This document shows, piece after piece, positions 14,124 to 63,500 of a DNA stretch of 64,000 nt (positions within the stretch are counted from its first letter, which is position 1; the number at the start of each line of letters is the position of its first letter). Both the position numbers and the translations under genes were made by a program. The stretch covers positions 18,004-82,003 of the forward strand of contig DATHNM010000479.1 in the NCBI GenBank assembly GCA_035486095.1. Reading direction: 5' to 3'. The stretch is from Bryobacteraceae bacterium (GTDB lineage Bacteria; Acidobacteriota; Terriglobia; Bryobacterales; Bryobacteraceae). The notes under the pieces are model-generated. The model was not told the origin of the DNA. It worked only from the letters and a program-made list of their open reading frames with translations, and did no database searches.

Positions 14124-14136
14124 TTGTGATTGAACC

Positions 14137-16272: not shown

Positions 16273-16283
16273 GCGTGCCCCTC

Positions 16284-28331: not shown

Positions 28332-28547
28332 CCGGGACCTGATGCTACTAGTACGATGCGGCCCCTATAAACATAGAAATGCGATCAAAATTCGGGCCGC
28401 ATGGATGTATACTATCTGCCCAGGACTCCAAAACGGAAAACTTGGCCGATCGCTCTGTGGAGCGGGCATAGCGAGTTCATCTGACGATGGCAGGATGAAC
28501 CTGATCGGTGGGTTCGTTTTGGCAGCGGGGTAACTCGGGGGGGATAA

Positions 28548-47556: not shown

Positions 47557-48762
47557 CTATCTGGCTGGACGCACACGCGATGGTTGGCGTAAGCGAGGAG
47601 GCGGCATGGATCCGCCGAGCCGCATGCGCAGATACGCGCGGCAGCGCGCCGCCACCAGCCCGGCAGTGGATGTCACCAGCTCCGAAAAGGAACGGCAATC
47701 GAACGTGGCTTGCAAATAGCGGCTGAAGCCGAAGCAGCGTTTAAGCGCTGGCTGGCCTTCCGTCAGCCTGAGATAATCGAACGCCAGAACCGGCAAAGTT
47801 CCCACCAGCGGCCGCGGTCGAATCTTTACGCGATGTTCCACGCGCTCCCGGAAAGATACCTGGATTCGGCTCAGCGAATGTAAAGCGCTCACAGGTATAT
47901 CGACACCCATTCGAGCCTTCAGATATTCCAATGCATCGCTCACCGGAGCAGCCAACCGGCGCGAGCTTACCTGTTCGACAAAGCGGTTCCAATCCAGGCT
48001 TGCCCCCGCAGCCCGAATCAATACGGTGGCATCCGCAATCCAGCTCACTGGTTGCACCAGGCTCCAGCGAGCGCCATGCACTATCACATGCAGCAGTTGA
48101 TCCGCCGCGCACAGGGACTTGCACGGGGCGCCGTAAATGTCGCAGGCAATCGCCTGGCGCCAGAAATCGTTATTCGATCCGGGCGCGCAGCATTCCTGAA
48201 GCACGTTCCAATGCAGGTCCACGCGTTGGCCATCGGCCCGCACGAACTCATCGCCGTGCCGGATGTCCATCAGCAGTTCCGGATTATCCAGTGAAGACTT
48301 CCATTCCCAGGCGCGCAGCCAGTGGATTGCCTGCTGTGCTGCTTCGCGTCTCACAAGTAGATCCAGATCCGTCATGGGCCGCACTCCGAAGTCGCGATAG
48401 GCCAGTACGCTGAGCGCGCCTCCTTTCAGCACCATGGGCTCAATTCCCTGGTCGTGGAATCGCGACAAGAGATCTGCCAGCGTGCGGAAGCGAAGTTGGT
48501 TTTGCGACCAGGTTTTCCGGTAAACCCCCTGCAGACCGGCGAGCGGCCGGTCTTCGCGCCAGTGGCTGGCAAGGTTGCGATACACCAGCGGCAAAATGCG
48601 GTTTACGCCGGAATCCAGCTGGCCGCCGCCGGTCTGTTGCCGCCAGAGCTGCCAGGCGCGATGTCCCGCTTCTGGATCCTGCAACGCCGCCTGCAGCAGC
48701 AGTTCCTGCGTCACGCTGGGAAACTGCCAGCCCGCGAAACGAACATTTTTCGCCGGCCTCAC
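47557..48762 (-). CDS. Uncharacterised nucleotidyltransferase family protein (NTP_transf_5-like), copy 1
   Basis: VLKGGALSVLAYRDFGVRPMTDLDLLVRRE and ...DLHWNVL... match the family hallmark (KG...Y......R...DlDlLv). GTG start with a GTGA overlap onto the upstream gene's stop (48759-48762). Confidence 0.7.
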   Translation of the reverse strand: MRPAKNVRFAGWQFPSVTQELLLQAALQDPEAGHRAWQLWRQQTGGGQLDSGVNRILPLVYRNLASHWREDRPLAGLQGVYRKTWSQNQLRFRTLADLLSRFHDQGIEPMVLKGGALSVLAYRDFGVRPMTDLDLLVRREAAQQAIHWLRAWEWKSSLDNPELLMDIRHGDEFVRADGQRVDLHWNVLQECCAPGSNNDFWRQAIACDIYGAPCKSLCAADQLLHVIVHGARWSLVQPVSWIADATVLIRAAGASLDWNRFVEQVSSRRLAAPVSDALEYLKARMGVDIPVSALHSLSRIQVSFRERVEHRVKIRPRPLVGTLPVLAFDYLRLTEGQPALKRCFGFSRYLQATFDCRSFSELVTSTAGLVAARCRAYLRMRLGGSMPPPRLRQPSRVRPAR

Positions 48763-50123
48763 GACGCTGCCATCGGATCGGGAAAGCGAACCAGATTCGT
48801 CTCTTCGATCGCTCCATGCAGTTGAGGCACTTGTACGGCGCGCCGCACTTTCAGCAAATCTCGGGTGCGTGCGTCGGAACTATTGGCGGGCAGCTCGATC
48901 CAGGCAACCGTATAAACATTTCCTCCCGACGCAAGCAGGCTTTGCGCCTGGGTTACATAACGGCCGTCCGTCATTCGAACCAGACCGTGGCAGCGCAGCG
49001 CAGCGGAAGGAATGTGATAGGTGAAGTAGCTCACCGTGCTGCGGACCCGCTGCCCGTCTGCAAGGATTGCGCCCGGCCCGGTGGCCAGGTAGCGGATGGT
49101 GTCTCCGTCATCGGACAGATGGAACGCTAGCGTCGCCTGCGGCTTCACCTGCCACCACGCAGCACGGCTCCACTCCGCCGGGCGAAGCGCAGCCAGGGGT
49201 TCCACGCGCCCATTCGCCGGATCAAAACGGAACAACTGGGATGTTCTGGACAGAATGCCGTAGAAGGCATTCTGCTTGCGGTTCCACAATACCTTTCGCC
49301 ACATGGATGGCTCGCCGTCGAACCAAAGCGCCTGGGACGCCACGAGTTCAATCTTATTCGAAACTCTTCGAAAAACAAAAATACGGCCTTGCGAGTCTGA
49401 CCAGTAGACATCGCCGCTTCGCGGGTCCAGTCCCATGCTTCGGCAGATTCGCGACCAGCTTCCATCCCGCGTCGCTCCCCGTTCGCCAAGGCCGAACACC
49501 GAGGGGAAAGATTGCGCCTGGCACGGTTCCATAGAGGACATCAGAAATAACCCGGACGGCCAGGTCAGACCATACAGACATCCGCGCGCCGCGTCGGCCG
49601 CCATCGCGATGATGCCCTCTTCCTCTGGCGCCTTCGAAAGCCGCGTGAATGCGCAAGTTCCCGTATCGAACCCCAAGAAAAAGCCACCCTGGTACGGACG
49701 CCGTCCGGCGATTCTGCCCGGCGTTTCGATCCCGTTCCGGGTGTCGTAAAAACCGATGTGCGTGGCCGTGTACAATTGGCGATTCCATTCCGCGAATTCG
49801 ACGTGCACCTTGCCGTGCGGGATGGCTTGCGGGTCTGTCGCGACGGCGGCATCAAAGCCGGCCAACGCGGAAACTTCGTTCGAACTTTCGTCAAACAAGA
49901 ACAGCCGCGCCGAGGTGTCGCTCCGCCAGCTGCCAATGGCAAAATAGATCTTCCTGTTGGCCGCCTGGTGGAGCGCGTTGTAGCAGGAGTCGCCATGCGT
50001 GAAACCGGTGTCCAACAGCTCTGCGGGAAGAACGCCGTGTCTGGAGCAGAGCTGCTCGGGAAGACTGAGCTGTCTGCTCTGCCAGGCGAACGAACGGGCT
50101 TTTCCTACCAGCATTGTTCCCAA
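48759..50123 (-). CDS. Cytoplasmic protein of unknown function (repetitive beta-rich, possibly propeller-like)
   Basis: 454-aa ORF with no signal peptide and no motif I recognise. It has recurring hydrophobic-Gly/Asp strand patterns (KIYFAIGSW, QLYTATHIGFYD, CLYGLTWPSG, DVYWSDSQGRIFVF, AFYGILSRTSQLFRFD). The start is TTG 50123 or ATG 50114. Confidence 0.6.
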   Translation of the reverse strand: MGTMLVGKARSFAWQSRQLSLPEQLCSRHGVLPAELLDTGFTHGDSCYNALHQAANRKIYFAIGSWRSDTSARLFLFDESSNEVSALAGFDAAVATDPQAIPHGKVHVEFAEWNRQLYTATHIGFYDTRNGIETPGRIAGRRPYQGGFFLGFDTGTCAFTRLSKAPEEEGIIAMAADAARGCLYGLTWPSGLFLMSSMEPCQAQSFPSVFGLGERGATRDGSWSRICRSMGLDPRSGDVYWSDSQGRIFVFRRVSNKIELVASQALWFDGEPSMWRKVLWNRKQNAFYGILSRTSQLFRFDPANGRVEPLAALRPAEWSRAAWWQVKPQATLAFHLSDDGDTIRYLATGPGAILADGQRVRSTVSYFTYHIPSAALRCHGLVRMTDGRYVTQAQSLLASGGNVYTVAWIELPANSSDARTRDLLKVRRAVQVPQLHGAIEETNLVRFPDPMAAS

Positions 50124-50186
50124 CGTCGGACGCCACCCCGTTGCAGCGAACGGGTTATCATAACTAGCATCTTAGCGGCTCGGACA

Positions 50187-51317
50187 ATGAAAGTGCTCTT
50201 CTGGTCGGAACTGTTCTGGCCCTACATCGGCGGTGCCGAGGTGTTTGGGGCGAAGTTGTTGAGCGCCCTTGCGAAGCACGAAAATCAATTCGCGGTCATC
50301 ACCTCGCATGACAACTTGGATCTGCCGGATCGCGATGTTTACGAAGGCATCCCGGTCTATCGATTCCCGTTTCGCGCCGTGCTTTCCGGCCGCGCCCTCA
50401 GCCGGTTCCCGGAAGTGATTCGCGGAGTTGCGCGCGTGAAAGCTGAATTTCAACCAGACCTGGTGCATGTGAACGCGTTGGGGCCCAGCGCCACATTTCA
50501 TATGCGCGGCTCGGGCCAAGGTGCTGTCCCCACCTTGTTCACGCTGCAGCAAGAGGTTTTGCCGAGCCAAACCGGTTCGGGCAATCTGTTGTATCAACTT
50601 CTCACTGCCGCCTCGCACGTGGTGGGAGTTTCGAACAGCGTGCTGGATCAAGTAAGGAATCTGGCGCCGCAGATTTCAGCGAAGACGTCCTGCATCTACA
50701 ACGGAGTGGATCCGCCGCCGCTGGCTCCTTCACCGCTGCCGTTTCACCCTCCCAGCCTGCTCTGTCTGGGCCGCCTGGTTCCCGCGAAACGAGTGGACTG
50801 GGCCATCGAAGCCATTGCGCGTTTGCGCGATCAGTTTAAAGGAATAGAGCTGGTCATCGCGGGCGATGGTCCGCTGCGCCACGCTCTGGAGGCACGCGCA
50901 CTGCAGCTCGGGGTGCAGGATTGCGTGCGCTTCCTGGGCTGGGTGGAACCGGAACAAGTGTATGAAAAAATCAATGCAGCCACCTGCGTGCTAATGCCGT
51001 CCCAGCGGGAAGGTCTGCCGGTGTCGGGCGTGCAGGCGGCCATGATGGGCCGGCCCATCGTGGGCACGGCCGTTGGAGGATTGGTGGAAGTGGTGCGGCA
51101 CGCGGAGACGGGATGGCTGGTGGCATCAAACGATCTGGAAGGTTTCATCAGCGGCCTGGGTCAACTGCTGGAAAATCCCGAGCGCGCCGCAGGCATGGGC
51201 GCCGCAGCCCGGGTTCACGCCCTTCGCACCTTCGAGTGGCAGTCAACCGTGGAAAGATATCAACAGCTTTACTCTGACGTTGCAGCACATCAGGAGACGA
51301 TACTTGAATCTCGATAG
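50187..51317 (+). CDS. Glycosyltransferase, GT-B fold (GT4/GT1-like)
   Basis: MKVLFWSELFWPYIGGAEVFGAKLLSAL...; C-terminal LMPSQREGLPVSGVQAAMMGRPIVGTAVGGLVEVV (E-x7-E-type region). The start is trimmed from the track ORF 49758, which overlaps the divergent gene. Confidence 0.8.
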   Translation: MKVLFWSELFWPYIGGAEVFGAKLLSALAKHENQFAVITSHDNLDLPDRDVYEGIPVYRFPFRAVLSGRALSRFPEVIRGVARVKAEFQPDLVHVNALGPSATFHMRGSGQGAVPTLFTLQQEVLPSQTGSGNLLYQLLTAASHVVGVSNSVLDQVRNLAPQISAKTSCIYNGVDPPPLAPSPLPFHPPSLLCLGRLVPAKRVDWAIEAIARLRDQFKGIELVIAGDGPLRHALEARALQLGVQDCVRFLGWVEPEQVYEKINAATCVLMPSQREGLPVSGVQAAMMGRPIVGTAVGGLVEVVRHAETGWLVASNDLEGFISGLGQLLENPERAAGMGAAARVHALRTFEWQSTVERYQQLYSDVAAHQETILESR

Positions 51318-51756
51318 CGCGTATGCGCCCCGTGAGGAAGTAGCCAGCGAGCTTATAGACGGGGAAGCCATTATTATCGACCTCAGCACCGGCATGTACT
51401 TCAGCCTGGATCGAGTGGGTGGACGCATCTGGGCCTTGCTGGCCAATCAGGCATCGCTGGGCGAAATTCGCGCGTGCCTGGTGAATGAATACCAGGTGGA
51501 TGAGCAAGTGGCGGGCGAAGATCTGGAAAATCTGGCGCAGCAACTGCTTGCTGAGAATCTTATTGTGCCCGCCAAGGAGCCGCGGCCCTTGGACCACGCG
51601 GCTGACGAAACAACCGCCGCAAAGGCTCCCTATCAACCGGCGCGCCTGGTTGCCTACCGCGATATGGGCGACCTGCTGGCTCTGGATCCGCCGGCTCCCG
51701 GCCTGTCCGAAATAGTTTGGCGCGATGGCCCGGCAAACGAGCGCGACGAACGTTAA
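51304..51756 (+). CDS. PqqD-family (RRE-type) peptide-chaperone-like protein with a ~60-aa C-terminal extension
   Basis: TTG 51304 lies 6 nt after AGGAGA (51292-51297). EVASELIDGEAIIIDLSTGMYFSLDRVGGRIWALLANQASLGEIRACLVNEYQVDEQVAGEDLENLAQQLLAENLIV matches the PqqD fold pattern. The tail is ...APYQPARLVAYRDMGDLLALDPPAPGLSEIVWRDGPANERDER. Confidence 0.7.
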   Translation: MNLDSAYAPREEVASELIDGEAIIIDLSTGMYFSLDRVGGRIWALLANQASLGEIRACLVNEYQVDEQVAGEDLENLAQQLLAENLIVPAKEPRPLDHAADETTAAKAPYQPARLVAYRDMGDLLALDPPAPGLSEIVWRDGPANERDER

Positions 51757-51759
51757 GCG

Positions 51760-52800
51760 ATGCGCGCACCGGCAAACCAAGAGCTGGACGAACCGGGTTT
51801 AGAGAGCTATGCCGAACTGCGCGCGGAGTTCGAAACCTCGGCACGTGCCCGCGCGGTTCTGGAGAGAAGCATTGAGATCGCCGGCCGGCAGGTGCAAATG
51901 CGATTGGTGGGAGAGCCGATTGCCGCCTGGATCGATCCCGCGCTTGGCCATCTTGCATCGAAATCCGTCGGTTCATCGCCAAGACTGACAGTCGATCTGT
52001 TTCCCGGCGCTTCCGGGCAGCCTGGTTCCGACGGTGCGGGCCGCATTTCGACGTCGGCCGACGGACGCTTTCTGAGCCAGAGCGTGGGTGGCTGCTATTA
52101 CCTGCTGGATCGAACGGAACGGCGGCTGGTAGGTTCCATTTGCTCGCTGGAGGAAATTCCTTCCTGGGAGCGGGTCAAACCGCTCTCGGTGCCGGTGACC
52201 ACATGGCTGAACGACGATGGGCTTAGCGTGATTCACGCCGGGCTGGTTTCGCTGGGCGGCCAGGGAGTGCTGTTCGCCGGGCCCAGCGGGACCGGAAAAT
52301 CCACCTGCGCCCTGGCGTGCGCGGTCGCTGGATTCGATTTTTTGGGGGACGATTGTATTATTCTCGACGTCCAACACGGCACGGGTTCGGCAAACAATTG
52401 CATCGGTTACAGCCTCTATTCAACCGGCGCGCTGGATGCCGCCCATCTCGAAAAATTTGCTTCGCCGCTGGTCCACACCAATGGCGCCACGGCATCGCGA
52501 GGAAAACAGTTGATCGCCCTGCATGTTGCGCAGCACATTCAAACCGTTCCTCAGTCGAAAATCCGCGCCATTATGCTGCCCCGGCTCACGCAAGAAGAAC
52601 GCAGCGTGATCCGTCCGGCGGCTAAGAGCGATGCGCTGCGGTTGCTGGCGCCCAGCTCGATCATCAAGCGCGCGGTCCCGGCCGGGCGCACACTCGCCAG
52701 ACTTGCGGCGCTGGTCAACCTGGTGCCCAGCTACTGGCTGGACATGAGCCACAATCCCACCGATATTTCAAAAGCCATCGCGCCGCTCATCACGCCATGA
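51760..52800 (+). CDS. HPr-kinase-related (HprK C-terminal-domain-like) kinase
   Basis: P-loop plus downstream acidic motif LFAGPSGTGKSTCALACAVAGFDFLGDDCIIL (P-loop 52279-52302), as in HprK GxSGxGKSexAL...G..lvaDD. There is no HPr/PTS context. Confidence 0.75.
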   Translation: MRAPANQELDEPGLESYAELRAEFETSARARAVLERSIEIAGRQVQMRLVGEPIAAWIDPALGHLASKSVGSSPRLTVDLFPGASGQPGSDGAGRISTSADGRFLSQSVGGCYYLLDRTERRLVGSICSLEEIPSWERVKPLSVPVTTWLNDDGLSVIHAGLVSLGGQGVLFAGPSGTGKSTCALACAVAGFDFLGDDCIILDVQHGTGSANNCIGYSLYSTGALDAAHLEKFASPLVHTNGATASRGKQLIALHVAQHIQTVPQSKIRAIMLPRLTQEERSVIRPAAKSDALRLLAPSSIIKRAVPAGRTLARLAALVNLVPSYWLDMSHNPTDISKAIAPLITP

Positions 52801-53531
52801 CACCGCTTGTCAGTTGCATCATCCCGGTTTTCAACAGCGAGCGCTTCATAGCGGCGGCAGTGGAGAGCATTCTGGGACAGACCCACCGGCCAATCGAAAC
52901 CATCGTCGTTGACGACGGCTCTACCGATGGCACGGGCGCAATGCTGCAACAGTTCTCAGGCGTCCTTAAAGTGATCACTCAAGCCAACGCAGGGCATGCC
53001 GCTGCCAGGAACGCGGGCATCCGCGCGGCGGCCGGCGAATATATCGCTTTTCTGGATGCGGACGATCTTTGGCATCGCGACAAGCTGGCGCGCCAATTAC
53101 AGCGTCTGGCCGAAAATCCGGCGCTGGGCGTCACCTTTTCACATCTGCTGAATTTCAGCGGAAATCCGCCGCCGGCCGAGATCGATGTTTCCCCGGCCAC
53201 GGCCGGCGCCGTCCCCGGCTACACCAGTGTCACCATGCTGGCGCGGCGCACGCTCTTCCACACCATCGGGCTCTTCGACGAAACGCTGCGCCACGGCAAC
53301 GATCGCGATTGGCTGCTGCGTGCCGCCGAGCAAGGCGTCCACGTGGACTTGCTGCCCGAAGTTCTGGTTTACAGGCGGCTGCACGATGCCAACCGCAGCG
53401 CGGCGCTGGGTGGGTCCAGCCGCGCCGAATATCTCCGCATCATCAAGGCGTCGCTCGATCGGCGGCGTGCCAAAGATGGTCACGCCACTGAGTTGGATCT
53501 GGGAGGTGCCCGCCGGCAGGAGGAGCCTTGA
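52797..53531 (+). CDS. Family-2 glycosyltransferase (GT-A fold)
   Basis: VSCIIPVFNSERFIAAAVESILGQTHRPIETIVVDDGSTDGT and the DxD region IAFLDADDLW. ATGA overlap upstream. Confidence 0.85.
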   Translation: MTPLVSCIIPVFNSERFIAAAVESILGQTHRPIETIVVDDGSTDGTGAMLQQFSGVLKVITQANAGHAAARNAGIRAAAGEYIAFLDADDLWHRDKLARQLQRLAENPALGVTFSHLLNFSGNPPPAEIDVSPATAGAVPGYTSVTMLARRTLFHTIGLFDETLRHGNDRDWLLRAAEQGVHVDLLPEVLVYRRLHDANRSAALGGSSRAEYLRIIKASLDRRRAKDGHATELDLGGARRQEEP

Positions 53532-54619
53532 GCGCGGGAAGCCTCCGGGTGTCCCTCTGGCGTGCGCTATCGGGAACTCTGCCGAATGCGGAACAGACAC
53601 TTCTGCTGCGCGCGTGCTTGCTCGCAGGCGGCGACAGCAGCACTGCCTGGGAAGATTGGCGCGCTGGGGTGGCCGATCCGTTTCTGGCGCTCTCCGATAC
53701 CAATCGCTGGGCGCGCTCGTTGCTACCCCTCTTGATGAGCGCGGTCAGCCGTTCGGGCGCCGAGTTGAACGCCTCGACGCTCTCCTACTTGCGCGCCGCG
53801 TTTGTGCGTGAGAAATTGCGGATGGAGACTTACCGCAATGTGCGCAGGTTGGTCTTGTCGTCGCTAGAGGCTCAAGGCCTGCGGCCCATCGTGATGAAGG
53901 GAGCTGCCTTTGCAGAGACGCTCTATGACACGGCGGAACACCGGCATTGCCATGACATCGATCTGCTGATCCGCCACAGTGAGGCGCGGCTAGTCCTCCC
54001 GATTATCGAAAAGATCGGCCTCTCCGCCGTATCCTCGCCGGAGGGAACGGCCCACGCGCTTTTTATTCATTCGTCGGGATTGCCGCTGCGCGCGCACACG
54101 CGGCCCTTTCTCGCCAACGTCTACAATCCGCGCGTGGAAGAACTGTTTGAGCGCGCGAAAGATTGCATGCTGGACGGTGTGGCGGCCCGCATTCTCTGCC
54201 CGGTGGATGCGCTGGTGCACCTCTGCGGACATGCTTCCAGCGTTCCAGGGGTTGATGCACTGCGTTGGGTCTGCGATGCTTTCCTCCTCATCGGCCGTGC
54301 CCCGGACCTGGATTGGGATCAGCTGCTGGAACGTGCCAGCGCGATGAACGTGGTTGTCCCGCTCGCGCTGCGGCTGGACTATCTTGCAGCGGAATTCCAC
54401 GCGCAGGTGCCGGCGCGTGTCAGCCAACGTCTGCAGAATGCGGCCGGCGACGCGCCTTTCAGCACTATGCGGGCCGCATTCCAGGGCACGCTGTTGAGCG
54501 GACGCCAGGGGCTGAAGCGCTTAACGGACGCTGCGGCAGACCGGCGCGCATCCGCAGTGCTGGCCGTTTGGGCTGCCGATACAATTGCCCGCAGAACACT
54601 GCGGAACTTGAAGCGCTGA
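53528..54619 (+). CDS. Uncharacterised nucleotidyltransferase family protein (NTP_transf_5-like), copy 2
   Basis: VMKGAAFAETLYDTAEHRHCHDIDLLIRHSE parallels copy 1. TTG start overlapping the GT2 stop (TTGA); the true start is uncertain. Confidence 0.65.
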   Translation: MSAGSLRVSLWRALSGTLPNAEQTLLLRACLLAGGDSSTAWEDWRAGVADPFLALSDTNRWARSLLPLLMSAVSRSGAELNASTLSYLRAAFVREKLRMETYRNVRRLVLSSLEAQGLRPIVMKGAAFAETLYDTAEHRHCHDIDLLIRHSEARLVLPIIEKIGLSAVSSPEGTAHALFIHSSGLPLRAHTRPFLANVYNPRVEELFERAKDCMLDGVAARILCPVDALVHLCGHASSVPGVDALRWVCDAFLLIGRAPDLDWDQLLERASAMNVVVPLALRLDYLAAEFHAQVPARVSQRLQNAAGDAPFSTMRAAFQGTLLSGRQGLKRLTDAAADRRASAVLAVWAADTIARRTLRNLKR

Positions 54620-54655
54620 CCAGCCGCGATAGACTGGCATTGAAGCTATTTTCGT

Positions 54656-56383
54656 ATGCCCACCGCCGCCACTGCGTTCCTGAGCGCTCTCGAAGAAGCG
54701 GGAGTTTCCTACATTTTCGCGAACCTGGGCACCGATCATCCTCCCATCCTCGAGAGCCTGGCCGAAGCGCACGCAACCGGACAGCGGGTCCCTGAAGTGA
54801 TCACTTGTCCGCACGAAATGGTTGCGCTGAGCGCGGCGCATGGTTATGCACAAGCCACCGGCCGGGCGCAGGTGGTTCTGGTGCACGTGGATTGCGGCAC
54901 TCAATCGCTGGGTGGGGCGGTGCATAACGCAGCCAAGGCGCGCGTGCCGGTGCTGTTGTTTGCCGGAACGTCTCCCTTCACCCAGGAAGGCGAGCTGGCC
55001 GGCAGCCGCAACGAGTGGGTTCATTGGGTGCAGGACGTGCTGGATCAGCGCGGCATCCTTCGCGGCTACGTCAAGTACGAAAACGAAATCCGGACCGGCA
55101 GGAATGTCAAACAGCTGGTTCATCGCGCCATGCAGATCGCTCAAAGCGATCCCAAAGGGCCGGTTTATCTGACTGCCGCGCGCGAGGTGCTGGAAGCGGA
55201 AGTCCCGCCGGTTGCCGCACACGATTCGAAACTGTGGCGCCCCGTGGCGCCGTGCGCCATTGACCCGTCGGCTGTGGCGCTCATCGCCGAGGATCTGATC
55301 GCGTCGCGCCGTCCCCTGGTAATCAGCAGTTACCTCGGAAGAAATCCCGAGGCCGTGGGTGAATTGGTGAAGCTGTGCAACGCCCTGGGCATCGGCGCCT
55401 GGACATCCATTCCAACCTATCTGGACTTTCCCGCGGACCATCCGTTGTATCTGGGCAATCAGGTAAACGCTCCCGTACAAAACGCCGCACTCGAAGCAGG
55501 CGACGTGGTTCTGGTGCTGGACAGCGATGTGCCGTGGATCCCTACCGTGACGAAGCCGAACGGCGCCGCCAAGATTTATCACATCGATGTCGATCCACTT
55601 AAGGAGCAGATGCCGCTGTGGTATTTTCCGATGCAACACTCGTTTCGGGCGGATGCAGCCACCGCGCTCCGGCAAATTAACGCGTATGTGGCTAGCGCTC
55701 AGGCAAACGGAAAAATCGATGAAAATCTGGTGCAGCAGCGGCGGGCGCACTATACCGCGCTGCATGAAGTGCGCATGCAGGAACTGGCGGCGCGCGAGAC
55801 TCCCCGCCAGGATGTCATCACGCCCGAGTATCTGACGGCGCGTGTGCGTGCGCACCTGCCGGCGGATGCGCTGGTTCTGAATGAAGGCATCACCAGTCAC
55901 AACACCATCGCCGACCACATCCGAGCCAACCGAGCGGGAAGTTTTTTCACCTGCGGCGGCGGATCCATTGGATGGAATACGGGCGCCGCGGTGGGAATCA
56001 AGCTCGCCAATCCGGATAAAACCGTGGTCGCCCTCACCGGCGACGGGTGTTTCATGGCCTCCATTCCCTCGGCCGCGCATTGGATCGCGGGGCGGTACAA
56101 AACGCCGTTTGTTCAAGTGGTGTATAACAACCGCGGCTGGAAGGCTCCTAAGATGTCGACGCTTGCCATTCATCCGGATGGGTTCGTGAGTAAGTCGAAC
56201 GATATCGCTGCGGCCTTCGATCCGCCGCCGGATTATTCGGGAATCGCCAAGGCAGCAGGCGGTGCGTTTGCGGCCATCGTACACCAACCCGGCGAACTGG
56301 ATGGTGCACTGAGCGAAGCGTTCCGCGTGGTTCGCGAGGAGCGGCGCTGCGCCGTTCTGGATGTGTGGCTGCCCGGATTTTAG
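54656..56383 (+). CDS. Thiamine-diphosphate-dependent enzyme (acetolactate-synthase/sulfoacetaldehyde-acetyltransferase-like)
   Basis: N-terminal PYR domain AFLSALEEAGVSYIFANLGTDHPPILESL...PHEMVALSAAHGYAQATG. TPP-binding motif VVALTGDGCFMAS...YNNRGW. Confidence 0.85.
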   Translation: MPTAATAFLSALEEAGVSYIFANLGTDHPPILESLAEAHATGQRVPEVITCPHEMVALSAAHGYAQATGRAQVVLVHVDCGTQSLGGAVHNAAKARVPVLLFAGTSPFTQEGELAGSRNEWVHWVQDVLDQRGILRGYVKYENEIRTGRNVKQLVHRAMQIAQSDPKGPVYLTAAREVLEAEVPPVAAHDSKLWRPVAPCAIDPSAVALIAEDLIASRRPLVISSYLGRNPEAVGELVKLCNALGIGAWTSIPTYLDFPADHPLYLGNQVNAPVQNAALEAGDVVLVLDSDVPWIPTVTKPNGAAKIYHIDVDPLKEQMPLWYFPMQHSFRADAATALRQINAYVASAQANGKIDENLVQQRRAHYTALHEVRMQELAARETPRQDVITPEYLTARVRAHLPADALVLNEGITSHNTIADHIRANRAGSFFTCGGGSIGWNTGAAVGIKLANPDKTVVALTGDGCFMASIPSAAHWIAGRYKTPFVQVVYNNRGWKAPKMSTLAIHPDGFVSKSNDIAAAFDPPPDYSGIAKAAGGAFAAIVHQPGELDGALSEAFRVVREERRCAVLDVWLPGF

Positions 56384-56385
56384 GA

Positions 56386-57132
56386 CTAGCGCGCGGATTT
56401 TGCGAGCGCCACCGTAGTGACCGGTTTGAGTTCCACCCGGTATGCCTGATAAGGAACACTGCCGAGGTTTTCCACTGAGTGCAGCGGCTGGCTGGCGGGG
56501 TCATAGGTCACTTGCAATTCCTTCAACTCCGGACGGGCTGTTTTCGTGCCGTCCTTTAAGAAACGCTGGGAAGGAGGCAAGCTGAAGTACACCACCACAG
56601 CCGGCCAGGTGTGCGTGTGCCACGGTTCCTTAGCGCCGGGTGGGATGCGCACGCTGAGCACGCGTACGTAATCGTTTTCCAGGACCACGGTCAGATTGGG
56701 GTCATGGATCTTTACTGCATCGGTGTCTGGCAATGGCGCGGCGGCCGCTGGCTGGCAATCGACGCTTTTGATCTCGATCAGCAGATTATGCCGGTCGCGA
56801 TCGCTGCTTTCGAACCCCTTGCTGGGTCCTCCCTGGGACCATCTGATGTTGACGGTTTTCCAAGGCTCGTCGCGGCCCGAGGTCTGTTCGAAGAATACGC
56901 TGGGCCAAGGGTGCGTGTGCGGCGGCTCTTTGCTATGTAGCGGAACCCGCGCTTCCAGCACGCGCACCGCGTCGTTCTCCAGAATTACTTTGTGATGGTC
57001 GGGCGCAAAGGCAACCGCGTCGGTAGCGTCGGGCTTGATTAGCCCACAGCCGGCGGAGGCTTGCAGGCCAGCCGGCAGGAGCAGTGCCACGATGGCCCAA
57101 ACGCCCTGCATGGCGAGAGATCTTATGGTCAT
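56386..57132 (-). CDS. Secreted protein with an internally duplicated cupin-like half-domain
   Basis: There are two collinear units: HHKVILENDAVRVLEARVPLHSKEPPHTHPWPSVFF and NLTVVLENDYVRVLSVRIPPGAKEPWHTHTWPAVVVYF. Signal peptide. ATGA overlap with the upstream gene. Confidence 0.65.
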   Translation of the reverse strand: MTIRSLAMQGVWAIVALLLPAGLQASAGCGLIKPDATDAVAFAPDHHKVILENDAVRVLEARVPLHSKEPPHTHPWPSVFFEQTSGRDEPWKTVNIRWSQGGPSKGFESSDRDRHNLLIEIKSVDCQPAAAAPLPDTDAVKIHDPNLTVVLENDYVRVLSVRIPPGAKEPWHTHTWPAVVVYFSLPPSQRFLKDGTKTARPELKELQVTYDPASQPLHSVENLGSVPYQAYRVELKPVTTVALAKSAR

Positions 57133-57542
57133 GGTTTTGTTTCTCCGTTGTACTCAACCTGGGTAACTGCGTCCAGCCATTTCGTCTTGCCGTCGCTCAT
57201 ATCCACGGAAAATAGCGTGGCGGGCTGGCCCGCCGCTGCGCCATGCCAGTGCGGAACGCCGCCCGGCACATAAGCGGTTTCGCCGGGATGCAGTTCCTGA
57301 ACCGGATGCCCTTTCACCTGTGTGCGAGCGACGCCTTCCTGGCAAAGCAGAATCTGGCCGCGTTCGTGAACGTGCCACTTGGTGCGCGCGCCGGGTTCAA
57401 AATGAATGCGCGCGGCCCGCACACGAATGTTGCTCTCAAGCCGGGTGGCGGTTCCGGTGAAGTTGGCATTGGGGTCCGGTTGCTCCTGAGCGAACAACGT
57501 CGACAGAAGCGCGGCGAATATCAGCGGGGATAACCGGCTCAT
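57129..57542 (-). CDS. Secreted cupin_2-type protein
   Basis: ARIHFEPGARTKWHVHERGQILLCQEGVARTQV...GETAYVPGGVPHWHGA. Signal peptide MSRLSPLIFAALLSTLFAQ. Confidence 0.75.
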   Translation of the reverse strand: MSRLSPLIFAALLSTLFAQEQPDPNANFTGTATRLESNIRVRAARIHFEPGARTKWHVHERGQILLCQEGVARTQVKGHPVQELHPGETAYVPGGVPHWHGAAAGQPATLFSVDMSDGKTKWLDAVTQVEYNGETKP

Positions 57543-59386
57543 TTGCGCGGCTCCGTATCCAGGCCGAACGCCAGCAGGACGTTGCCCGGCAGGCCGCCGC
57601 GCGCCGGATAGCCGGAAATAGCGAACATCATTCCGCCGGCTATCACAGGCCCCGCCACGTCAATGGCCCCGCCGCGGCCGGGAACGCCGTTCACCGTTTG
57701 ATATTCGTGGGACGTATCGTAGTCCCAGATGATTTTTCCCTCGGATGTGGAATAGCCGCGCAGGTGTCCGTCTTCCGCGCCGGACCATACCACTCCCGGG
57801 ATCGCGGTCACGGCCGCCGATTGAGCCGGACTGCACGGCCGCCGATCGCCGCAGCCAGGTGGCGGAGTCTGCCACATACGTTCGCCATTGTCTACACGAA
57901 ATGCGAATAATCCGCCGCCTTTGGCCGGGTCCAGATTGTACGAGCGATCGTTGCTCGCCGGTTTGCGGTCCACTGCGAAACGGATATCGGAAAGAGCCAC
58001 GTAGACATTGCGGCCGTCGGTGGCCGAGCCCCACTCGATGCCGCCCACGGTGCCGCCTTCGCCGATGCGCGCCTGCCATAAGATCTCGCCGCGCCGGTCC
58101 GGGTCCACCGCATAGATGGCCGCCGATTTTTGTCCCAGCAGAAGCGCGCGGCGGCCGTTGGGGAGTGAAACCAATATGGCCGATGACGCGAAATCGAAAT
58201 CGGGTCCGTCTGAATCGGGGCAATTCACTTTGCCGGCCAGCTGGCAGGAGCTGTTCCAGGCGTCCTTCGCGGTAAATTGCTTGGACCACTGAATCTCGCC
58301 CGAGGACATGCGCAAAGACAGCAGGGCGTCGCTGAGCGCGGTGGGCGGATCGGAATAATTGTCGCCTGTGGTTACGTACATCGTGTCGCGTTCAGGGTCC
58401 AGCACCGGCGCGGTCCAGACGCCGACACCGGAGGGGCCAAAGGCCGCTGAACCGTGCCGGGTCTTTGCTCGTTCCTTGGCCACATCGCGAATTGTGTAGG
58501 TCTTCCACAATACTTTTCCTGTAACAGCGTCTAGCGCGGACTCGCTGCCGCGAAACGTGCAGCACACGTAGCCCGGAGAAACCGAGAGAGCCTCCTCGCG
58601 AGAAGCCACGCCGACATACAAACGATCCTTGTAAAACACCGGCGTCGCCGTCACGGTAGAGGCCGCATGTTCGTCCGCACGCGTCTTCCACAACTGCTTG
58701 CCGGACGTGGCATCCAACGCATAGACGAACCCGGCGGAATCGCCAAAGAACACCACGGGATTACCGTTCACCTCGCCGATGGTAATGGCCGTCCGCACCT
58801 GGGACTGCACGGTGGTGGCCCAATGCACGCAGCCGGTTTGCATGTCGAGAGCGTACACGCTGCCGTCCTGCCCGCCTGCGAATACTCTGCCGCGATAAAC
58901 CGCCGGCTGGGAGCGCATGGTGGAAGTGTCCGGGAACGCAAATGCCCACTTCAGTTTCAAGCGGGGCAGGTCTTGCACGCTCAGGCCCGCGTCTTTTTCC
59001 GATTGGAACCTGGTATTGGCCAGGCCGCCTCCCCAACTGGCCCAGGCAGGTCCCTCGTTCCATGGCGCGCCTGCCGGACACAGATTCGCAATTTCCTCGC
59101 GCTTTCGTTCCAGGGTTACCGCTGTTCCCAAGAAGCTCGCGATTCTCTGGCGTTCATCCGCCGAAAGCGCCGATGCCTGCTGTTTCATGATGCCGCTGTC
59201 AATGGTCTTCTGAATGGCCGCCGGCGTCATGGATTTCAGCGCGGATATTTGTGGAACCCGTCCACTGGCTCCCGCCTCCGAGTTATGGCAGGAGGCGCAA
59301 TGTTTCTGAAAGAGCTGGGCGGCGTAAGGATCGTCGGCCGCCAGAGAAGTGATGGCGGCGATTACAAAAAACAGGCAGAGTCTCAT
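57539..59386 (-). CDS. PQQ-propeller quinohemoprotein with N-terminal cytochrome c (polyvinyl-alcohol-dehydrogenase-like architecture)
   Basis: Heme motif CASCH (59285-59299) in LFQKHCASCHNSEAGASGRVPQ. Repeated propeller blades follow (GRVFAGGQDGSVYALDMQTGCVHW, FFGDSAGFVYALDATSGKQLW, GAEDGHLRGYSTSEGKIIW). Confidence 0.8.
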   Translation of the reverse strand: MRLCLFFVIAAITSLAADDPYAAQLFQKHCASCHNSEAGASGRVPQISALKSMTPAAIQKTIDSGIMKQQASALSADERQRIASFLGTAVTLERKREEIANLCPAGAPWNEGPAWASWGGGLANTRFQSEKDAGLSVQDLPRLKLKWAFAFPDTSTMRSQPAVYRGRVFAGGQDGSVYALDMQTGCVHWATTVQSQVRTAITIGEVNGNPVVFFGDSAGFVYALDATSGKQLWKTRADEHAASTVTATPVFYKDRLYVGVASREEALSVSPGYVCCTFRGSESALDAVTGKVLWKTYTIRDVAKERAKTRHGSAAFGPSGVGVWTAPVLDPERDTMYVTTGDNYSDPPTALSDALLSLRMSSGEIQWSKQFTAKDAWNSSCQLAGKVNCPDSDGPDFDFASSAILVSLPNGRRALLLGQKSAAIYAVDPDRRGEILWQARIGEGGTVGGIEWGSATDGRNVYVALSDIRFAVDRKPASNDRSYNLDPAKGGGLFAFRVDNGERMWQTPPPGCGDRRPCSPAQSAAVTAIPGVVWSGAEDGHLRGYSTSEGKIIWDYDTSHEYQTVNGVPGRGGAIDVAGPVIAGGMMFAISGYPARGGLPGNVLLAFGLDTEPRK

Positions 59387-59495
59387 CCCGTACCCCGATC
59401 TGGCGCCTGGTTGGCTGCGCCCCGGAGTATATCAACAAACATCCGTCGCGCGGGCCGATTGAGAACACACGTTGAGAACGCGCGCTACGCCGTGC

Positions 59496-60503
59496 TTATT
59501 TCCCTACCATGTGTTCCACGTCCTTGTTGTTCTCGTTGCAGACATACTCTCCGATGTCGTCGTTGGCATCCAGCTCCGAGGCTCGCAGGATTTTCCAGGG
59601 CTTGGCGTAAGCTTCCGGATCGTCGATGGTGAACTCGATCTCCAGATGTCCCAGATCAGGCCGGCGAAAGCGCTCGGTCACGCGCAGCATTTCGGTGTGC
59701 GCATGACCCTGGGTATCGAGCCACGACCGGTCGTCGAAACCCACCGTGTCGACCACCAGCGTGTCTCCTTCCCAACGACCGATGGAATGCCCCATCCACA
59801 TAGGATTGGGATCTTTCGGATGGCTGCGCCCGTCCAAAAAGACCTGGCGGTGGCTGGGGATGTCATCTTCAAACAGCATCACCAGCAGGGTGGGTGTCTG
59901 AACCAGTTTGTAAGGAAACAGCGCTCCGGCACTGGTGATGCCGCGCGGCAGGCAGTGTGCCCCAGGCGCATCCTTGGAGTTGTTAGCGGCCCGCTCCCTC
60001 AGCAACGCTTCCACCCAGGGCCGAGGTTCTGGCGTGCCCGCATCCACCGTTCGCTGTGCGAACCAGACGCCGGAGAGGTCGGGTTTGCCATCCGCGGTTC
60101 GAGGCGCGGGTCCGGATGGCGCGGCATGCGGACTTGTCAGCTGCACCCTGAACTCCCGCCCGTCGCCCAGGGTGCCCAACTGGTATTCGAGCAGGCGAAC
60201 GTCCAGGCGCAGCGGTTCTGCCGGGCCCAGCGCGACGTTTTCTCGATTGGTTGGGTAAAACCCCGGAGCGCTCACAGCGACGTCATAAGTTCCTGGCGGC
60301 AGCTTCGATAACGTGTAGCGGCCTTGGTCGGTAGCCGCAGTCTTGTAAATTGCTTTGGTGCTCCGGTTGGTTGCTTGGACCTGGGCGTTTGCCACCGCCT
60401 CGCCGTCCGAGTCCCACACGGCGCCGGCGATTGTTCCCCCGCCCTGTGCATACGACGCGATGGCTATCCAGCACAACAGGCCCAGCCGTAGAATCCCGCG
60501 CAT
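59496..60503 (-). CDS. Fusion of a CarboxypepD_reg-like Ig domain with a 'type D' unknown-family domain
   Basis: Start ATG 60503 (MRGILRLGLLCWIAIASYAQ). GTIAGAVWDSDGEAVANAQVQATNRSTKAIYKTAATDQGRYTLSKLPPGTYDVAVSAPGF. Then RTADGKPDLSGVWFA, WMGHSIGRWEGDTLVVDTVGF and FTIDDPEAYAKPWK. Confidence 0.8.
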   Translation of the reverse strand: MRGILRLGLLCWIAIASYAQGGGTIAGAVWDSDGEAVANAQVQATNRSTKAIYKTAATDQGRYTLSKLPPGTYDVAVSAPGFYPTNRENVALGPAEPLRLDVRLLEYQLGTLGDGREFRVQLTSPHAAPSGPAPRTADGKPDLSGVWFAQRTVDAGTPEPRPWVEALLRERAANNSKDAPGAHCLPRGITSAGALFPYKLVQTPTLLVMLFEDDIPSHRQVFLDGRSHPKDPNPMWMGHSIGRWEGDTLVVDTVGFDDRSWLDTQGHAHTEMLRVTERFRRPDLGHLEIEFTIDDPEAYAKPWKILRASELDANDDIGEYVCNENNKDVEHMVGK

Positions 60504-60591
60504 GATGTCAAGAGTATAAACCACTCCAAGCGGGATCGAAAAATTCAAGTCGCGAAAGGGTTGGCCGATATGATAGCGTAATTCAAACTAC

Positions 60592-63500
60592 ATGTTTTCC
60601 GCAAAGTTCTGGCTCTTCCTCCCGATTAGTGTGTTTGCGGCCCTCTGGCCATCGCAAGCGGCGGCTGACTGCACCAGTCTTCCACCCATCGATCCCACTA
60701 AAGGATTCATTGCAAACTTTCAGAATCCCTGTTACATGTTGTCGCTGCGCAACGGAAACTCGCATTTCGCCGGTGACCTGAATGCGATCTATACGAGTTT
60801 TTTCTATCAGGTTACGCCTGGTTATGAACTCATCATCGTGGGGGTCTATCCGAATGCCCGCTTCATGTCGGCGACGGTTTACGACGATCATCTGGTCGCC
60901 GTGGGCACGCTGCTGGACACCGACATTGTCCCGTTAACCAGCGCCATGACGAACCCTCTGGCGCCGGGAGAGACGTTCACTCCCAACCAAAGGTATGGCA
61001 TGATCGTCTCCTTCGGGCAGCCGACGGCCACTACTGAGAGTCCGGGCTGTAGCATCGGCAGCACCAACATCAGCCAGAATGTGCTGGACGCCTCCCAACT
61101 CCACAGCGGAATCACCTGGGCTGGTAGTCCGTCCCTCCCACCTGGATTTCCCGCTCACGAGACCGGGCCCAACGTATCCGGGATGGTGACGCTGCGGAAA
61201 TATGTGGACATTGACGCCTCGCCCGTTCCCGAATACGTTATCGTGCGCAGCCTGGCCAATGGCTGCGCCATGCCCATCCAGCAGGCCATTCAGGCCAATA
61301 TCGTGGGCGTGCAGCAAACCGTTACCAGTCCGCTGCTTCATCAGGATCAGATCAGCGCTCATTTGCAATATGCTTCGGCCATCCAACCCTGGCTGGATTT
61401 TCCGCCCGATCCGCTGAACAATGTGGTCTGGCAGCGCCCTTCCGAATACATCCCGGTCAACGATACCGTGGCGGGCTATCTGGGCGGCGCCCTTTCGAAT
61501 CTGCAAATCAAAAGTCTCTTAGCGGGTCAAACGTACTTGCGCATCCAATTTCAAATGCCCAGCACGCCGTCCACGCCTTGCACCACGGGGAATTGCAGCC
61601 TGCGGGGCGATGAACAAGTGCGCTTCGTTGGATTGACCTTCCAGACGGCGGCTATCAATTGCGCCGGGCACAGCAGCATCCTCTCGATCGACGACCAGAG
61701 TCTGGTGAAGGACGTGAATGGCAATGTCAACATCGTGGCCGGTTTTGGCGCTCCCCAGCCACCGAACGCGACGGCTGCCAATGGCTATACCTGGATCGAT
61801 GTGAGCAGCATGCCAAACTACACCAGCTTTAGCGGCATGATCATCCGCGAGCTTGGTCCGAGTTCATCCTTTCAGTGTTCGACCTTGAATGTGCCGTTCA
61901 AGACTTCCGCGTATAACCCCGAGGGCGGTTACATGGGAGCATTCGCGCCCACCGTGGACTTTCCCACCGCGTCCCAGATTCCGGCAACCCCGATACCGGT
62001 AGTGAGGCCCAATAGTTGTGCGCTGGTGCCCACCCAGGCTCCGCAACAAATAGCCGGCACTACTCCTTTCCAGAGTTGCACCACGAACAACACTTTAAAT
62101 TCCTATGCATCTATCGTGGGAAGTAGCGCCGGCAGCGGCACCTTGACGCTGACCGCCACCGGCGCCTGGACCGCCAGCAGCAACGCCGGATGGTTGCAGT
62201 TATCGGCTGGCAGCACCAGCGGCACCGGGAATGCGACAATTCAGTTCACTTACCCTGCCAACACGAACGCCGCTGCCCAGTCTGGAGTTCTTACCATAGG
62301 GGGCTTGACATTCACACTTACTCAAGTGGGCGTGAACTTTGTGCCAATCGCCCCGCCGGTCCCGCTGGAATCCATCGGATTGAGCCATCCTCAGGGCCTG
62401 GCGGTGGATGGATCGAACAATGTGTATATCGCCGACACGGCCAACAACGCCATTAAGCAGTGGAGCCCTGTCACGCAGGCCACCGCGACCTTGTCGTCGG
62501 CGCAAAGCAGCCCCGCCGCAGTGGCAGTGGACGGGACGGGAAACGTGTTTATCGCCGACAGTGGCAACCACGCCATAGAAGAGTTAAGCGCCGCCAATCA
62601 ACAGCTGTCCACGTTAGTTTCGGGGCTGGGCAATCCATCCGGAGTGGCGGTGGACACACAGGGAAATATCTATTTTTCCGACGCCGGCAACAATACGGTC
62701 AACCAATGGAACACCGCCTTGCAGCAGCTAACTACATTGGCCGGCTCGGGGTTGAACCATCCTGCCGGCGTGGCGGTGGATGCGTTCGGCAATGTGTACT
62801 TTGCCGACAGCGGCAGCAACAGCATCAAGGAATGGACCGCGGCCAATGGCTTGGTTACGCCGCTGGTAGCGACGGGTTTGAACAATCCAACGGGGTTAGC
62901 CATGGATGCGCAGGGCAATTTGTATGTGGCCGACACGGGCGACAATGCCATCAAGGAATGGAATGCCACAACCCAACAGTTGACCTCGCTGGTGACCACG
63001 GGTCTGAATAACCCGCTGGGAGTGGCGGTGGATGGCACAGGCAATATCTATGCCGCGGACAGTAACGATAGCGAGATCGATGAATACACGCCAGGTTTTC
63101 TGGCCTTGAGCACCGGCAGCCTCACCGAAGCCGCCGTGGCTGGTACGGATTCGCTGACCGCGCAAGTGTTGCCCGCCAGCATCCCGCTCACCGCCACCAG
63201 CAACCAGCCATGGCTGAGCATCACGGGCATCAGCGGCGGTGTGATCAATTTTTCGTTCACCGCCAATACCGGAGCCACCAGCCGCATAGCGCAGATCATG
63301 GTGCTGGGACAGACCGTGACCGTTACGCAAAATGCCGATGTTCCGGCTACCATCACCAAGATCGTGGGCCGGAGCCAAAGCACGCCGGAAGGCCAGCCTT
63401 TTCCTTCCCGCCTGTCAGTGCGGGTGACGGATGCGGCTGGAAACAACGTTCAAGGGGTCAGCGTGATGTTTCAGGTGGTGGCGGCGCCCAACGGCGCGGC

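Follow-up and report, generated by a model that had tools for sequence, protein, structure and literature searches.

A widespread relative of phosphorylated lasso-peptide gene clusters whose PqqD-type recognition protein carries a conserved leader-like peptide

A compact set of seven genes occupies positions 47557-54619 of a 64,000-nucleotide stretch of DNA from a Bryobacteraceae bacterium of the phylum Acidobacteriota (assembly GCA_035486095.1, contig DATHNM010000479.1, positions 18,004 to 82,003 of the forward strand). This whole stretch is called the window, and positions are counted from its first letter unless a related locus is named. The set encodes a PqqD-family protein, an HprK-like kinase, two nucleotidyltransferases of the NTP_transf_5 family (NT5a and NT5b), two glycosyltransferases (GT2 and GT4), and an accessory beta-propeller; it is an undescribed, widespread relative of phosphorylated lasso-peptide pathways. 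The PqqD-family protein is a recognition element (RRE) of the kind found in pathways for peptides that are made on ribosomes and modified after translation (RiPPs), extended by a C-terminal tail that resembles a lasso leader, and the "missing precursor" of the cluster probably lies within the gene for this tailed RRE. With a confidence a little short of even, the cluster is read here as a cyclase-less and peptidase-less offshoot of the machinery for phosphorylated lasso peptides and linear polyphosphorylated peptides (LPPs), in which the tail of the RRE protein, or something that this protein presents, would be phosphorylated and glycosylated. No paper describing the tailed RRE or this gene set was found. 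The features of the cluster are listed below, with protein lengths in amino acids (aa).

47557-48762, minus strand: NT5a, an NTP_transf_5 nucleotidyltransferase (401 aa; Pfam PF14907, 3.5e-40)
48759-50123, minus strand: U454, the accessory beta-propeller (454 aa; GTGA-coupled to NT5a)
50124-50186, no strand: divergent intergenic region between the two operons (63 bp; sequence read)
50187-51317, plus strand: GT4 glycosyltransferase, GT-B fold (376 aa; Glycos_transf_1, 7.7e-36; Glyco_transf_4, 1.2e-16)
51304-51756, plus strand: tailed RRE (PqqD) protein (150 aa; Pfam PqqD, 2.6e-14)
51625-51681, plus strand: leader-like segment APYQPARLVAYRDMGDLLA within the tailed RRE (residues 108-126; YxxPxL motif at Y110, P113, and L115)
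51682-51720, plus strand: post-leader segment LDPPAPGLSEIVW within the tailed RRE (residues 127-139; conserved, predicted disordered)
51760-52800, plus strand: HprK-like/ScmC-like P-loop kinase (346 aa; Hpr_kinase_C, 27.7 bits)
52797-53531, plus strand: GT2 glycosyltransferase, GT-A fold, soluble (244 aa; Glycos_transf_2, 3.5e-35)
53528-54619, plus strand: NT5b, the NTP_transf_5 paralogue (363 aa; Pfam PF14907, 1.8e-33)

Residues 1-90 of the tailed RRE form a PqqD/RRE domain of the lasso B1 type, which is followed by a linker, the leader-like peptide, the conserved post-leader segment, and a variable tail. A PDB search with a profile of the RRE family gives TbiB1 as the best match (2.7e-17), then PbaB1 (4e-14) and LppB (9x8z; 9e-9), and also TfuB1; the best NCBIfam match of the protein is lasso_PqqD_Bac (53.5 bits), followed by lasso_PqqD_Strm, GeoRSP, WgkC, PqqD, and ScmD. 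The AlphaFold2 (AF2) model has predicted local distance difference test values (pLDDT) above 90 over residues 1-90 and matches TbiB1:leader complexes with a TMt of 0.92 (Foldseek). Its secondary structure (β1 6-9, β2 13-18, β3 21-26, β4 31-35, three helices, β5 87-89) follows the order of the winged helix-turn-helix described for LppB and PbaB1 (PMC13381572). The pocket for the leader tyrosine is also kept: in LppB, D70 hydrogen-bonds the leader Tyr (PMC13381572), and a hidden Markov model (HMM) alignment together with the residue list of that paper equates LppB D70, Y60, and L83 with D73, Y63, and L86, each conserved in at least 90% of the family. The protein has the fold and the D73/Y63/L86 pocket of a lasso B1 RRE that is predicted to bind a [Y/W]xxPx[L/V] leader, and it carries the YxxPxL motif in cis.

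Relatives of the protein are all 140-155 aa long rather than about 90. The 60 additional residues have a non-random sequence. They follow the consensus PYExPxLNIYRDMGDLLALDPPxPGLxDIPW or, in a shorter form, PYxxPxLxxYRDMGDLLALDPPxPG..W. Mean pairwise identity reaches 0.76 over residues 108-126 and 0.69 over residues 127-139, compared with 0.56 for the RRE, 0.18 for the linker, and 0.21 for the acidic C-terminal tail, which is variable and often Ser-rich; L127, D128, P129, P130, P132, and W139 are invariant in 37 sequences. Strong purifying selection acts on the tail. The family comprises at least 549 clusters at 90% identity and at least 397 metagenome loci (JGI), spans several mostly uncultured phyla, and has been annotated so far only as "PqqD family protein."

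Lasso leaders have YxxPxL as their conserved motif for RRE binding, at leader positions -17 to -12 (PMC10368454), and LPP leaders have it too (PMC13381572). In crystal structures, the residues right after the motif Leu extend the sheet on β4 of the RRE (positions -9 to -7 of PbaA; PMC13381572); in the AF2 model, residues 115-118, directly after YxxPxL, form a strand in the same register (pLDDT about 89), and residues 127-150 are disordered (pLDDT below 60 over residues 127-139). From the DSSP assignment, pLDDT, and the published register we infer, with good reason, that the tail would dock in cis on β4. Counted from the Tyr as in LPP and Bsf peptides, the leader would end at L125/A126, with L125 as the hydrophobic -2 residue that has been reported for kinase-type clusters. 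By the same count D128/P129 fall at the position of phospho-Ser3 of LppA/BsfA, and an acidic residue lies about 8-10 residues past the putative leader end, as in lasso cores. The conserved C-terminal peptide is the best candidate for a substrate or presentation element, and residues 127-139 are a candidate modification or enzyme-docking site.

The original prediction had reported no visible precursor, a statement overtaken by the lasso-leader-like YxxPxL peptide at the C-terminus of the PqqD reading frame; it was right that the genes leave no room between them for a separate precursor open reading frame (ORF). In the window and 21 loci, translated in all six frames, an HMM of the tail finds the fused copy only, one per locus. 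A phmmer search of 1.84 billion representatives with the tail returned 85 matches, all of them full-length tailed RREs or fragments, and no stand-alone precursor; the fragments keep RRE or linker sequence, start at a non-ATG codon, or carry an adaptor artefact. The 64-kb window and about 100 loci yielded neither a candidate precursor ORF nor a second copy of the motif. In two giant proteins (P0200 and P0239, about 2000-2100 aa), the stretch DMGDLLALDPP..W of the tail is matched three to five times, through either reuse of the motif or proline-rich chance similarity.

The kinase is, judged by its sequence, an HprK-like peptide-kinase relative with all catalytic residues kept, because it has a catalytic motif spaced as in BsfK, its family profile matches HPr kinase/phosphorylase structures in the PDB (2.7e-7), and its homologues belong to PF27840. 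The motif consists of H159, G174, G177, G179, K180, S181, D197, and D198, and its spacing is that of the mutationally validated H148-G163-G166-G168-K169-S170-D186-D187 of BsfK (Duan et al., PMC10368454). Twenty homologues share H159, the Walker A sequence G174-x-x-G-x-G-K-S/T, and LGDD197-198; H159, G174, G179, K180, and D198 are invariant among them, and the other positions are at least 90% conserved. Precomputed matches to PF27840 (ScmC, a new Pfam family) exist for the 99%-identical protein P0001 and for kinase homologues. Among the domain assignments made earlier, PqqD, both NTP_transf_5 proteins, GT4, and GT2 lie above threshold; the kinase scores 27.7 bits with Hpr_kinase_C (PF07475), under the gathering score of 33.3, and has the full catalytic motif. 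HprK-like kinases phosphorylate, and often polyphosphorylate, Ser residues of precursors, and the B1 RRE speeds the reaction (PMC10368454, PMC13381572). The kinship to lasso-peptide tailoring genes proposed by the original prediction is borne out by the combination of HprK-like kinase, NTP_transf_5, and B1-type PqqD.

NT5a and NT5b score 138.6 and 116.6 bits, respectively, with PF14907 (gathering score 31.2), and neither matches an NCBIfam model. They are distinct paralogues, and orthologues of NT5a occur in most related loci. Both copies have the DLD/DID metal site, but the third carboxylate is present in NT5a only: NT5a keeps the full triad of DLD and the D of DLHW (paralogue alignment), and NT5b, with the motif RHCHDID (family form RHCHD[IL]D), has lost the Asp of DLHW (subfamily alignment). 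The sequences suggest that the two may work as a heterodimer, because three loci (L007, L012, and L018) fuse them, with NT5b as the N-terminal half. The related enzyme PsmN, whose DxD is needed, is required for the addition of one or two hexoses to the phospho-Ser of pseudomycoidin, and may act merely by supplying a host glycosyltransferase (PMC6993621); LppN is inactive and thought to need an unknown partner (PMC13381572).

As partners of the tailed RRE, GT2 and GT4 are more constant than the kinase is, and they therefore belong to the core of the cluster rather than extending it. Related loci were collected with the kinase (a scan with a 9-sequence alignment) and with the tailed RRE as seeds; 94 loci carry a tailed RRE, and partners were counted in the 26 loci that are 7 kb or longer. 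GT2 is present in all 26 and GT4 in 25 (one to three copies), compared with 21 each for NTP_transf_5 and the HprK-like kinase; in the unbiased, RRE-seeded subset, the kinase is found in 7 of 12 long loci. These counts displace the earlier description of the cluster as a known system "extended by two glycosyltransferases." The gene directly after the RRE gene is GT2 in 22 and the kinase in 19 of the 60 loci with enough downstream DNA. GT4 lies under every NCBIfam equivalog cut-off, and the best, sub-threshold NCBIfam matches of both proteins are enzymes of exopolysaccharide (EPS) or teichuronic-acid synthesis. In L023, GT2 is left as frameshifted fragments (L023:1017-1170) after the tailed-RRE gene, followed by a GNAT-like gene; here the module has decayed or been replaced locally.

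Far more than chance is at work in this arrangement: dozens of loci, distributed over several phyla, have the same gene set. Host metagenome-assembled genomes (MAGs) belong to Acidobacteriota, Rokubacteria, Gemmatimonadota, Bipolaricaulota, a "Thermotogae" bin, and Eubacteriales, and one homologue is named Binatia. Although gene order differs from locus to locus, close packing of the genes is maintained and leaves no space for a small ORF. Kinase-less loci combine the tailed RRE, GT2, GT4, and NT5 with a SPASM radical-SAM enzyme, an AsnB-like amidotransferase, methyltransferases, an epimerase, and a PIG-L deacetylase; this sister variant is seen in L075, L077, L085, and L093 (e.g., L093:4650-8447), with the SPASM domain detected in the L075 copy only. 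The AsnB-like proteins of the sister loci are full-length, glutamine-dependent amidotransferases of 632-634 aa, and were rejected as lasso cyclases on account of their strong GATase domains. An initiating polyprenyl-phosphate glycosyltransferase was not seen in the annotated loci.

Individual loci show further variation. At L004:3496-6576, an NTP_transf_5 domain at the head of the module is fused to a complete ABC exporter (ABC_membrane and ABC_tran; 1026 aa), which suggests that the product is exported in that lineage. A Bryobacteraceae MAG contains an HprK-like kinase fused to GT2 (L019:3711-5459; 582 aa) next to a radical-SAM gene and an ORF of about 770 aa with TPR; PqqD was not found in this 14.7-kb locus. 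The contig L007:1-20373 has two kinases, NT5b::NT5a, GT4, tailed RRE, and GT2; it also encodes eIF-1A and zf_Tbcl proteins, and the host may be archaeal. A lasso-like mini-cluster at L009:9499-11889 has no cyclase within 10 kb on either side; it comprises a 34-aa ORF (MEKKRTYEKPEVHKLGLLRQLTKMSGWQFGQGPR) with a YxxPxV leader, a 91-aa PqqD, a 450-aa fusion of Transglut_core3 (B2) to an HprK-like kinase, and a short NTP_transf_5.

The nearest described system is that of the LPPs (Popov et al., Nat Commun 2026, PMC13381572). Shared with it are a discrete B1-like RRE, an HprK-like kinase, and an uncharacterised transferase of the NTP_transf_5 type, together with a YxxP-type RRE-binding motif and an association with glycosyltransferase-rich DNA; a macrolactam cyclase is lacking in both. 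The cluster differs in having GT2 and GT4 as core genes and two NT5 paralogues, so that where LppN needs an unknown partner, GT2, GT4, and the second NT5 are fixed partners here. It has no counterpart of the SpI-like (SipW-type) leader peptidase of LPP, and the window has none of the MsbA-like ABC exporter, which among the related loci is approached by the NT5::ABC fusion of L004 only. The LPP leader is the N-terminus of a separate precursor of 35-200 aa, whereas the motif of the cluster is fused to the C-terminus of the RRE. The downstream part of the motif is VLxHQxIxFETxxS in LPP leaders (in full, YxxPxVLxHQxIxFETxxS) and YRDMGDLLALDPPxPG in the cluster peptide, which has Asp/Pro where LPP precursors have the phospho-acceptor Ser3. 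Both LPP and paeninodins are reported to be confined to Bacillota (PMC13381572), whereas the present cluster type occurs in Acidobacteriota and other phyla.

Next nearest is the tailoring of paeninodin, BsfA, and pseudomycoidin by PadeK, BsfK, or PsmK and by PsmN. The cluster shares with these phosphorylated lasso peptides the motif spacing of BsfK, a B1-type RRE, a member of the PsmN family with its DxD, and the hydrophobic -2 residue (L125), but it has no Asn-synthetase-like cyclase, B2 protease, or separate precursor, and its glycosyltransferases are fixed. Mycofactocin (MftA/B/C/F) provides an analogy of logic only, with a PqqD-type RRE, a highly conserved peptide, and a GT2 enzyme that adds an oligosaccharide; GT2 of the cluster scores 82 bits with the MftF model (cut-off 280). 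The sister loci, too, have a SPASM radical-SAM enzyme and a methyltransferase, whereas the window lacks a radical-SAM enzyme, a peptidase, and an MftD-like enzyme. The HPr-rel-A and SynChlorMet systems (TIGR04352, TIGR04249/TIGR04248) also pair an HprK-like P-loop kinase with a PqqD-family protein, but their cut-offs are missed widely (kinase 35 vs 200, ScmC 23 vs 125, ScmD 14.7 vs 100), and SynChlorMet has two PqqE-like radical-SAM/SPASM partners, of which the window has none.

RiPP logic presumes a separate precursor that is captured by the RRE; a deeply conserved fusion of RRE and leader would be a new architecture, and would explain why such clusters look "orphan" to genome-mining tools that seek small ORFs. 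The role of the NTP_transf_5 enzymes (PsmN, LppN, BsfN) has been at issue since 2016-2019, and here their partners are genetically fixed and sometimes fused, so that the compact seven-gene set lets their function be addressed directly. A specific form of the proposal, which is possible but somewhat doubtful, is that the tailed RRE is a chaperone-leader-core fusion and a self-presenting substrate, whose conserved C-terminal peptide primes a phospho-oligosaccharide made by the kinase, NT5a/b, GT2, and GT4. If so, the clusters would define a novel class, either of glycosylated RiPP or of protein-primed glycan, with a wide distribution among uncultured soil phyla, and NTP_transf_5 enzymes would prime a phospho-peptide for dedicated glycosyltransferases.

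In the proposed mechanism, the YxxPxL segment of the tail would dock on β4 of the RRE, in cis or between molecules; this docking would offer the enzymes both the conserved, disordered LDPPxPG..W segment and the C-terminal tail. A hydroxyl there would be phosphorylated by the kinase; in the window protein, Ser135 is the sole Ser/Thr after LDP. The NT5a/NT5b pair may activate or derivatise the phosphate, as PsmN does on pseudomycoidin, and GT2 and GT4 would then assemble a short glycan. The product, which a few lineages might export by way of the NT5::ABC fusion or a Wzx-like protein, would be either the phospho-glycosylated tail of the protein or a glycopeptide freed from this tail. Three further observations count for this mechanism: the presence of SPASM radical-SAM enzymes, which are peptide/protein modifiers, in the sister variants; the fusions kinase::GT2, NT5b::NT5a, NT5::ABC, and B2::kinase; and the failure to see an initiating polyprenyl-phosphate glycosyltransferase in the annotated loci.

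Several observations weigh against this interpretation. No Ser or Thr of the tail is invariant, and 9 of 120 homologues have none after LDP; one of these, in L022, is from a locus that keeps the kinase. A universal Ser/Thr acceptor in the tail was rejected for this reason, and no specific acceptor residue is claimed, although in about half of the homologues a Ser-Ser pair stands two to three residues from the C-terminal end. Loci with a kinase and loci that lack one have an identical tail motif, so its constraint does not come from the kinase. Because a profile of the tail matched no leader chain among PDB chains at E<=10, there is no statistical support for homology to the crystallised leader peptides; the apparent likeness has as its basis a motif of three residues, the context of this motif, and the AF2 model. 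Some loci resemble polysaccharide loci, with Wzx-like, ManC, epimerase, and AsnB-like amidotransferase genes; exporters are rare among the loci; and no peptidase is present to free a peptide.

Since no hydroxyl residue is invariant in the tail, two rival explanations are kept. The same enzymology may be directed at a peptide or protein encoded elsewhere, with the YxxPxL tail as a pseudo-leader and LDPPxPG..W as a docking motif; the tail might auto-inhibit the RRE until displaced, or hold a "leader-bound" shape that recruits and activates the enzymes. This is unlikely, though worth serious attention: it accommodates a tail that lacks an invariant hydroxyl residue, and PPxP-type motifs are typical docking elements. 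In LPP, the C-terminal half of the leader is thought to touch the enzymes and not the RRE (PMC13381572), and mutation of YxxPxL does not abolish the stimulation of BsfK by BsfB1, a hint of direct contacts between RRE and enzyme. However, neither a candidate precursor nor a second motif copy was found in the window or the loci examined; the clusters are compact and otherwise self-contained, and a groove filled in cis would compete with a substrate supplied in trans. It is slightly less probable again that the product is a non-peptide glycoconjugate (an exopolysaccharide, glycolipid, or phosphoglycan) built by the glycosyltransferases, with the kinase and NT5 proteins acting on sugars and the tailed RRE as a scaffold. 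GT2 and GT4 are indeed universal partners with sub-threshold matches to EPS and teichuronic-acid enzymes; a Wzx-like Polysacc_synt_3 gene lies inside L013 and L020 and ManC in L021; the sister loci add the epimerase, the PIG-L deacetylase, methyltransferases, and the AsnB-like amidotransferase; and LPP and paeninodin clusters are located in capsule loci (PMC13381572). Yet the window and the annotated loci contain no initiating phosphoglycosyl transferase, polymerase, chain-length regulator, or outer-membrane export gene, and all seven window proteins match only soluble-type families in Pfam or none. All characterised HprK-like kinases of this clade act on peptide or protein Ser, and a pure scaffold is hard to square with the kept leader-binding residues and a tail conserved above any enzyme.

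Two other explanations fare worse. Membership in the HPr-rel-A system (HprK-related kinase A, PqqD, and nucleotidyltransferase), as favoured by the original prediction, is very improbable. The same three protein types are present and TIGR04352 HprK_rel_A is the top NCBIfam match of the kinase (6.1e-9), but at 35.4 bits against a cut-off of 200, with HprK_rel_B, HPr kinase proper, and ScmC scoring nearly as well; by these scores the kinase is not a member of TIGR04352 HprK_rel_A, HprK_rel_B, or ScmC. Nothing labelled HPr-rel-A in NCBIfam, which presumably holds models for the PqqD and nucleotidyltransferase partners, matches the PqqD protein at E<=10. It is barely credible that the cluster is a decaying, functionless lasso remnant left by loss of cyclase and protease. 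A remnant would account for an RRE, kinase, and NT5 of lasso type and for the acidic residue beyond the putative leader end, but the genes are intact, overlapping, and translationally coupled, and the set is kept at 25-50% identity in Acidobacteriota, Methylomirabilota, Gemmatimonadota, Bipolaricaulota, Bacillota, and others; the catalytic motifs are intact, and strong purifying selection acts on the tail.

All seven ORFs, with the overlaps between them and the 63-bp divergent region, lie in the ORF map as first described. NT5a and U454 are joined by a 4-nt GTGA overlap, and the divergent gap widens to 72 bp if the ATG at 50114 is the start of U454; a sigma-70-like site was not found in the 63-bp gap, a result that is uninformative for this phylum. 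The PqqD gene most likely starts at the TTG at 51304, which has AGGAG upstream and gives a 14-nt overlap with GT4; the gene call on a 99%-identical metagenome contig (L001) has the same start. Three nucleotides separate PqqD from the kinase, and kinase and GT2, like GT2 and NT5b, overlap by 4 nt. The neighbours of the cluster encode a thiamine pyrophosphate (TPP) enzyme, an SRPBCC protein, and a 5'-3' exonuclease (Pfam/NCBIfam). The TPP-enzyme gene is also on L001; otherwise the flanking genes are not beside the module in annotated related loci, and for this reason the boundaries given here are taken to be right.

The absence from the window of a cyclase, protease, radical-SAM, or YcaO enzyme, as noted in the original prediction, stands for the ORFs scanned and the annotation of L001. 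Asn_synthase and Transglut_core3 were not found in the cluster genes, their three immediate neighbours, or ten ORFs profile-scanned in positions 1-40000 (nine of at least 420 aa and one of 371 aa); other long ORFs in 38816-64000 were read, not profile-scanned, except those shared with L001. The Pfam annotation of L001, which covers about 50187-63000, includes no cyclase and no protease, the annotated kinase-type loci likewise have no Asn-synthetase-like cyclase, and the window has no radical-SAM or YcaO enzyme. A peptidase domain is absent from all seven genes (Pfam) and from the annotated related loci; the B2 domain Transglut_core3 (PF13471) is likewise missing from the cluster genes, their neighbours, and the related loci, with the exception of the distinct locus L009. 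PADLOC gave no defence-system match for any of the seven proteins.

The 454-aa protein encoded beside NT5a was rejected as a core member: it is rare, a generic propeller, and its distant homologues occur without the module. It has no Pfam, NCBIfam, or PDB sequence match, and its AF2 model is all-beta (pLDDT 89) and resembles only generic propellers in Foldseek (TM about 0.5). Its homologues form only 17 clusters; close ones lie on contigs with the module, and distant ones adjoin ceramidase genes. Two such homologues of about 30% identity (L025:9001-11679 and L026:4041-7717) adjoin a neutral/alkaline ceramidase (PF04734) on unrelated contigs, an adjacency that hints at a lipid-related role for this propeller family.

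Elsewhere in the window, three genes for beta-propellers of the pyrroloquinoline quinone (PQQ)-dependent dehydrogenase type lie at 12513-16305 and 57539-59386, and two of these encode a cytochrome c domain as well. No pqq biosynthesis genes were seen in the window, and the three genes have no relation to the PqqD-like RRE. Two adjacent giant ORFs at 23781-33341 encode proteins of 1516 and 1597 aa with PASTA domains, the first of which also has an astacin (M12A) metalloprotease domain; this combination of PASTA and astacin is unusual.

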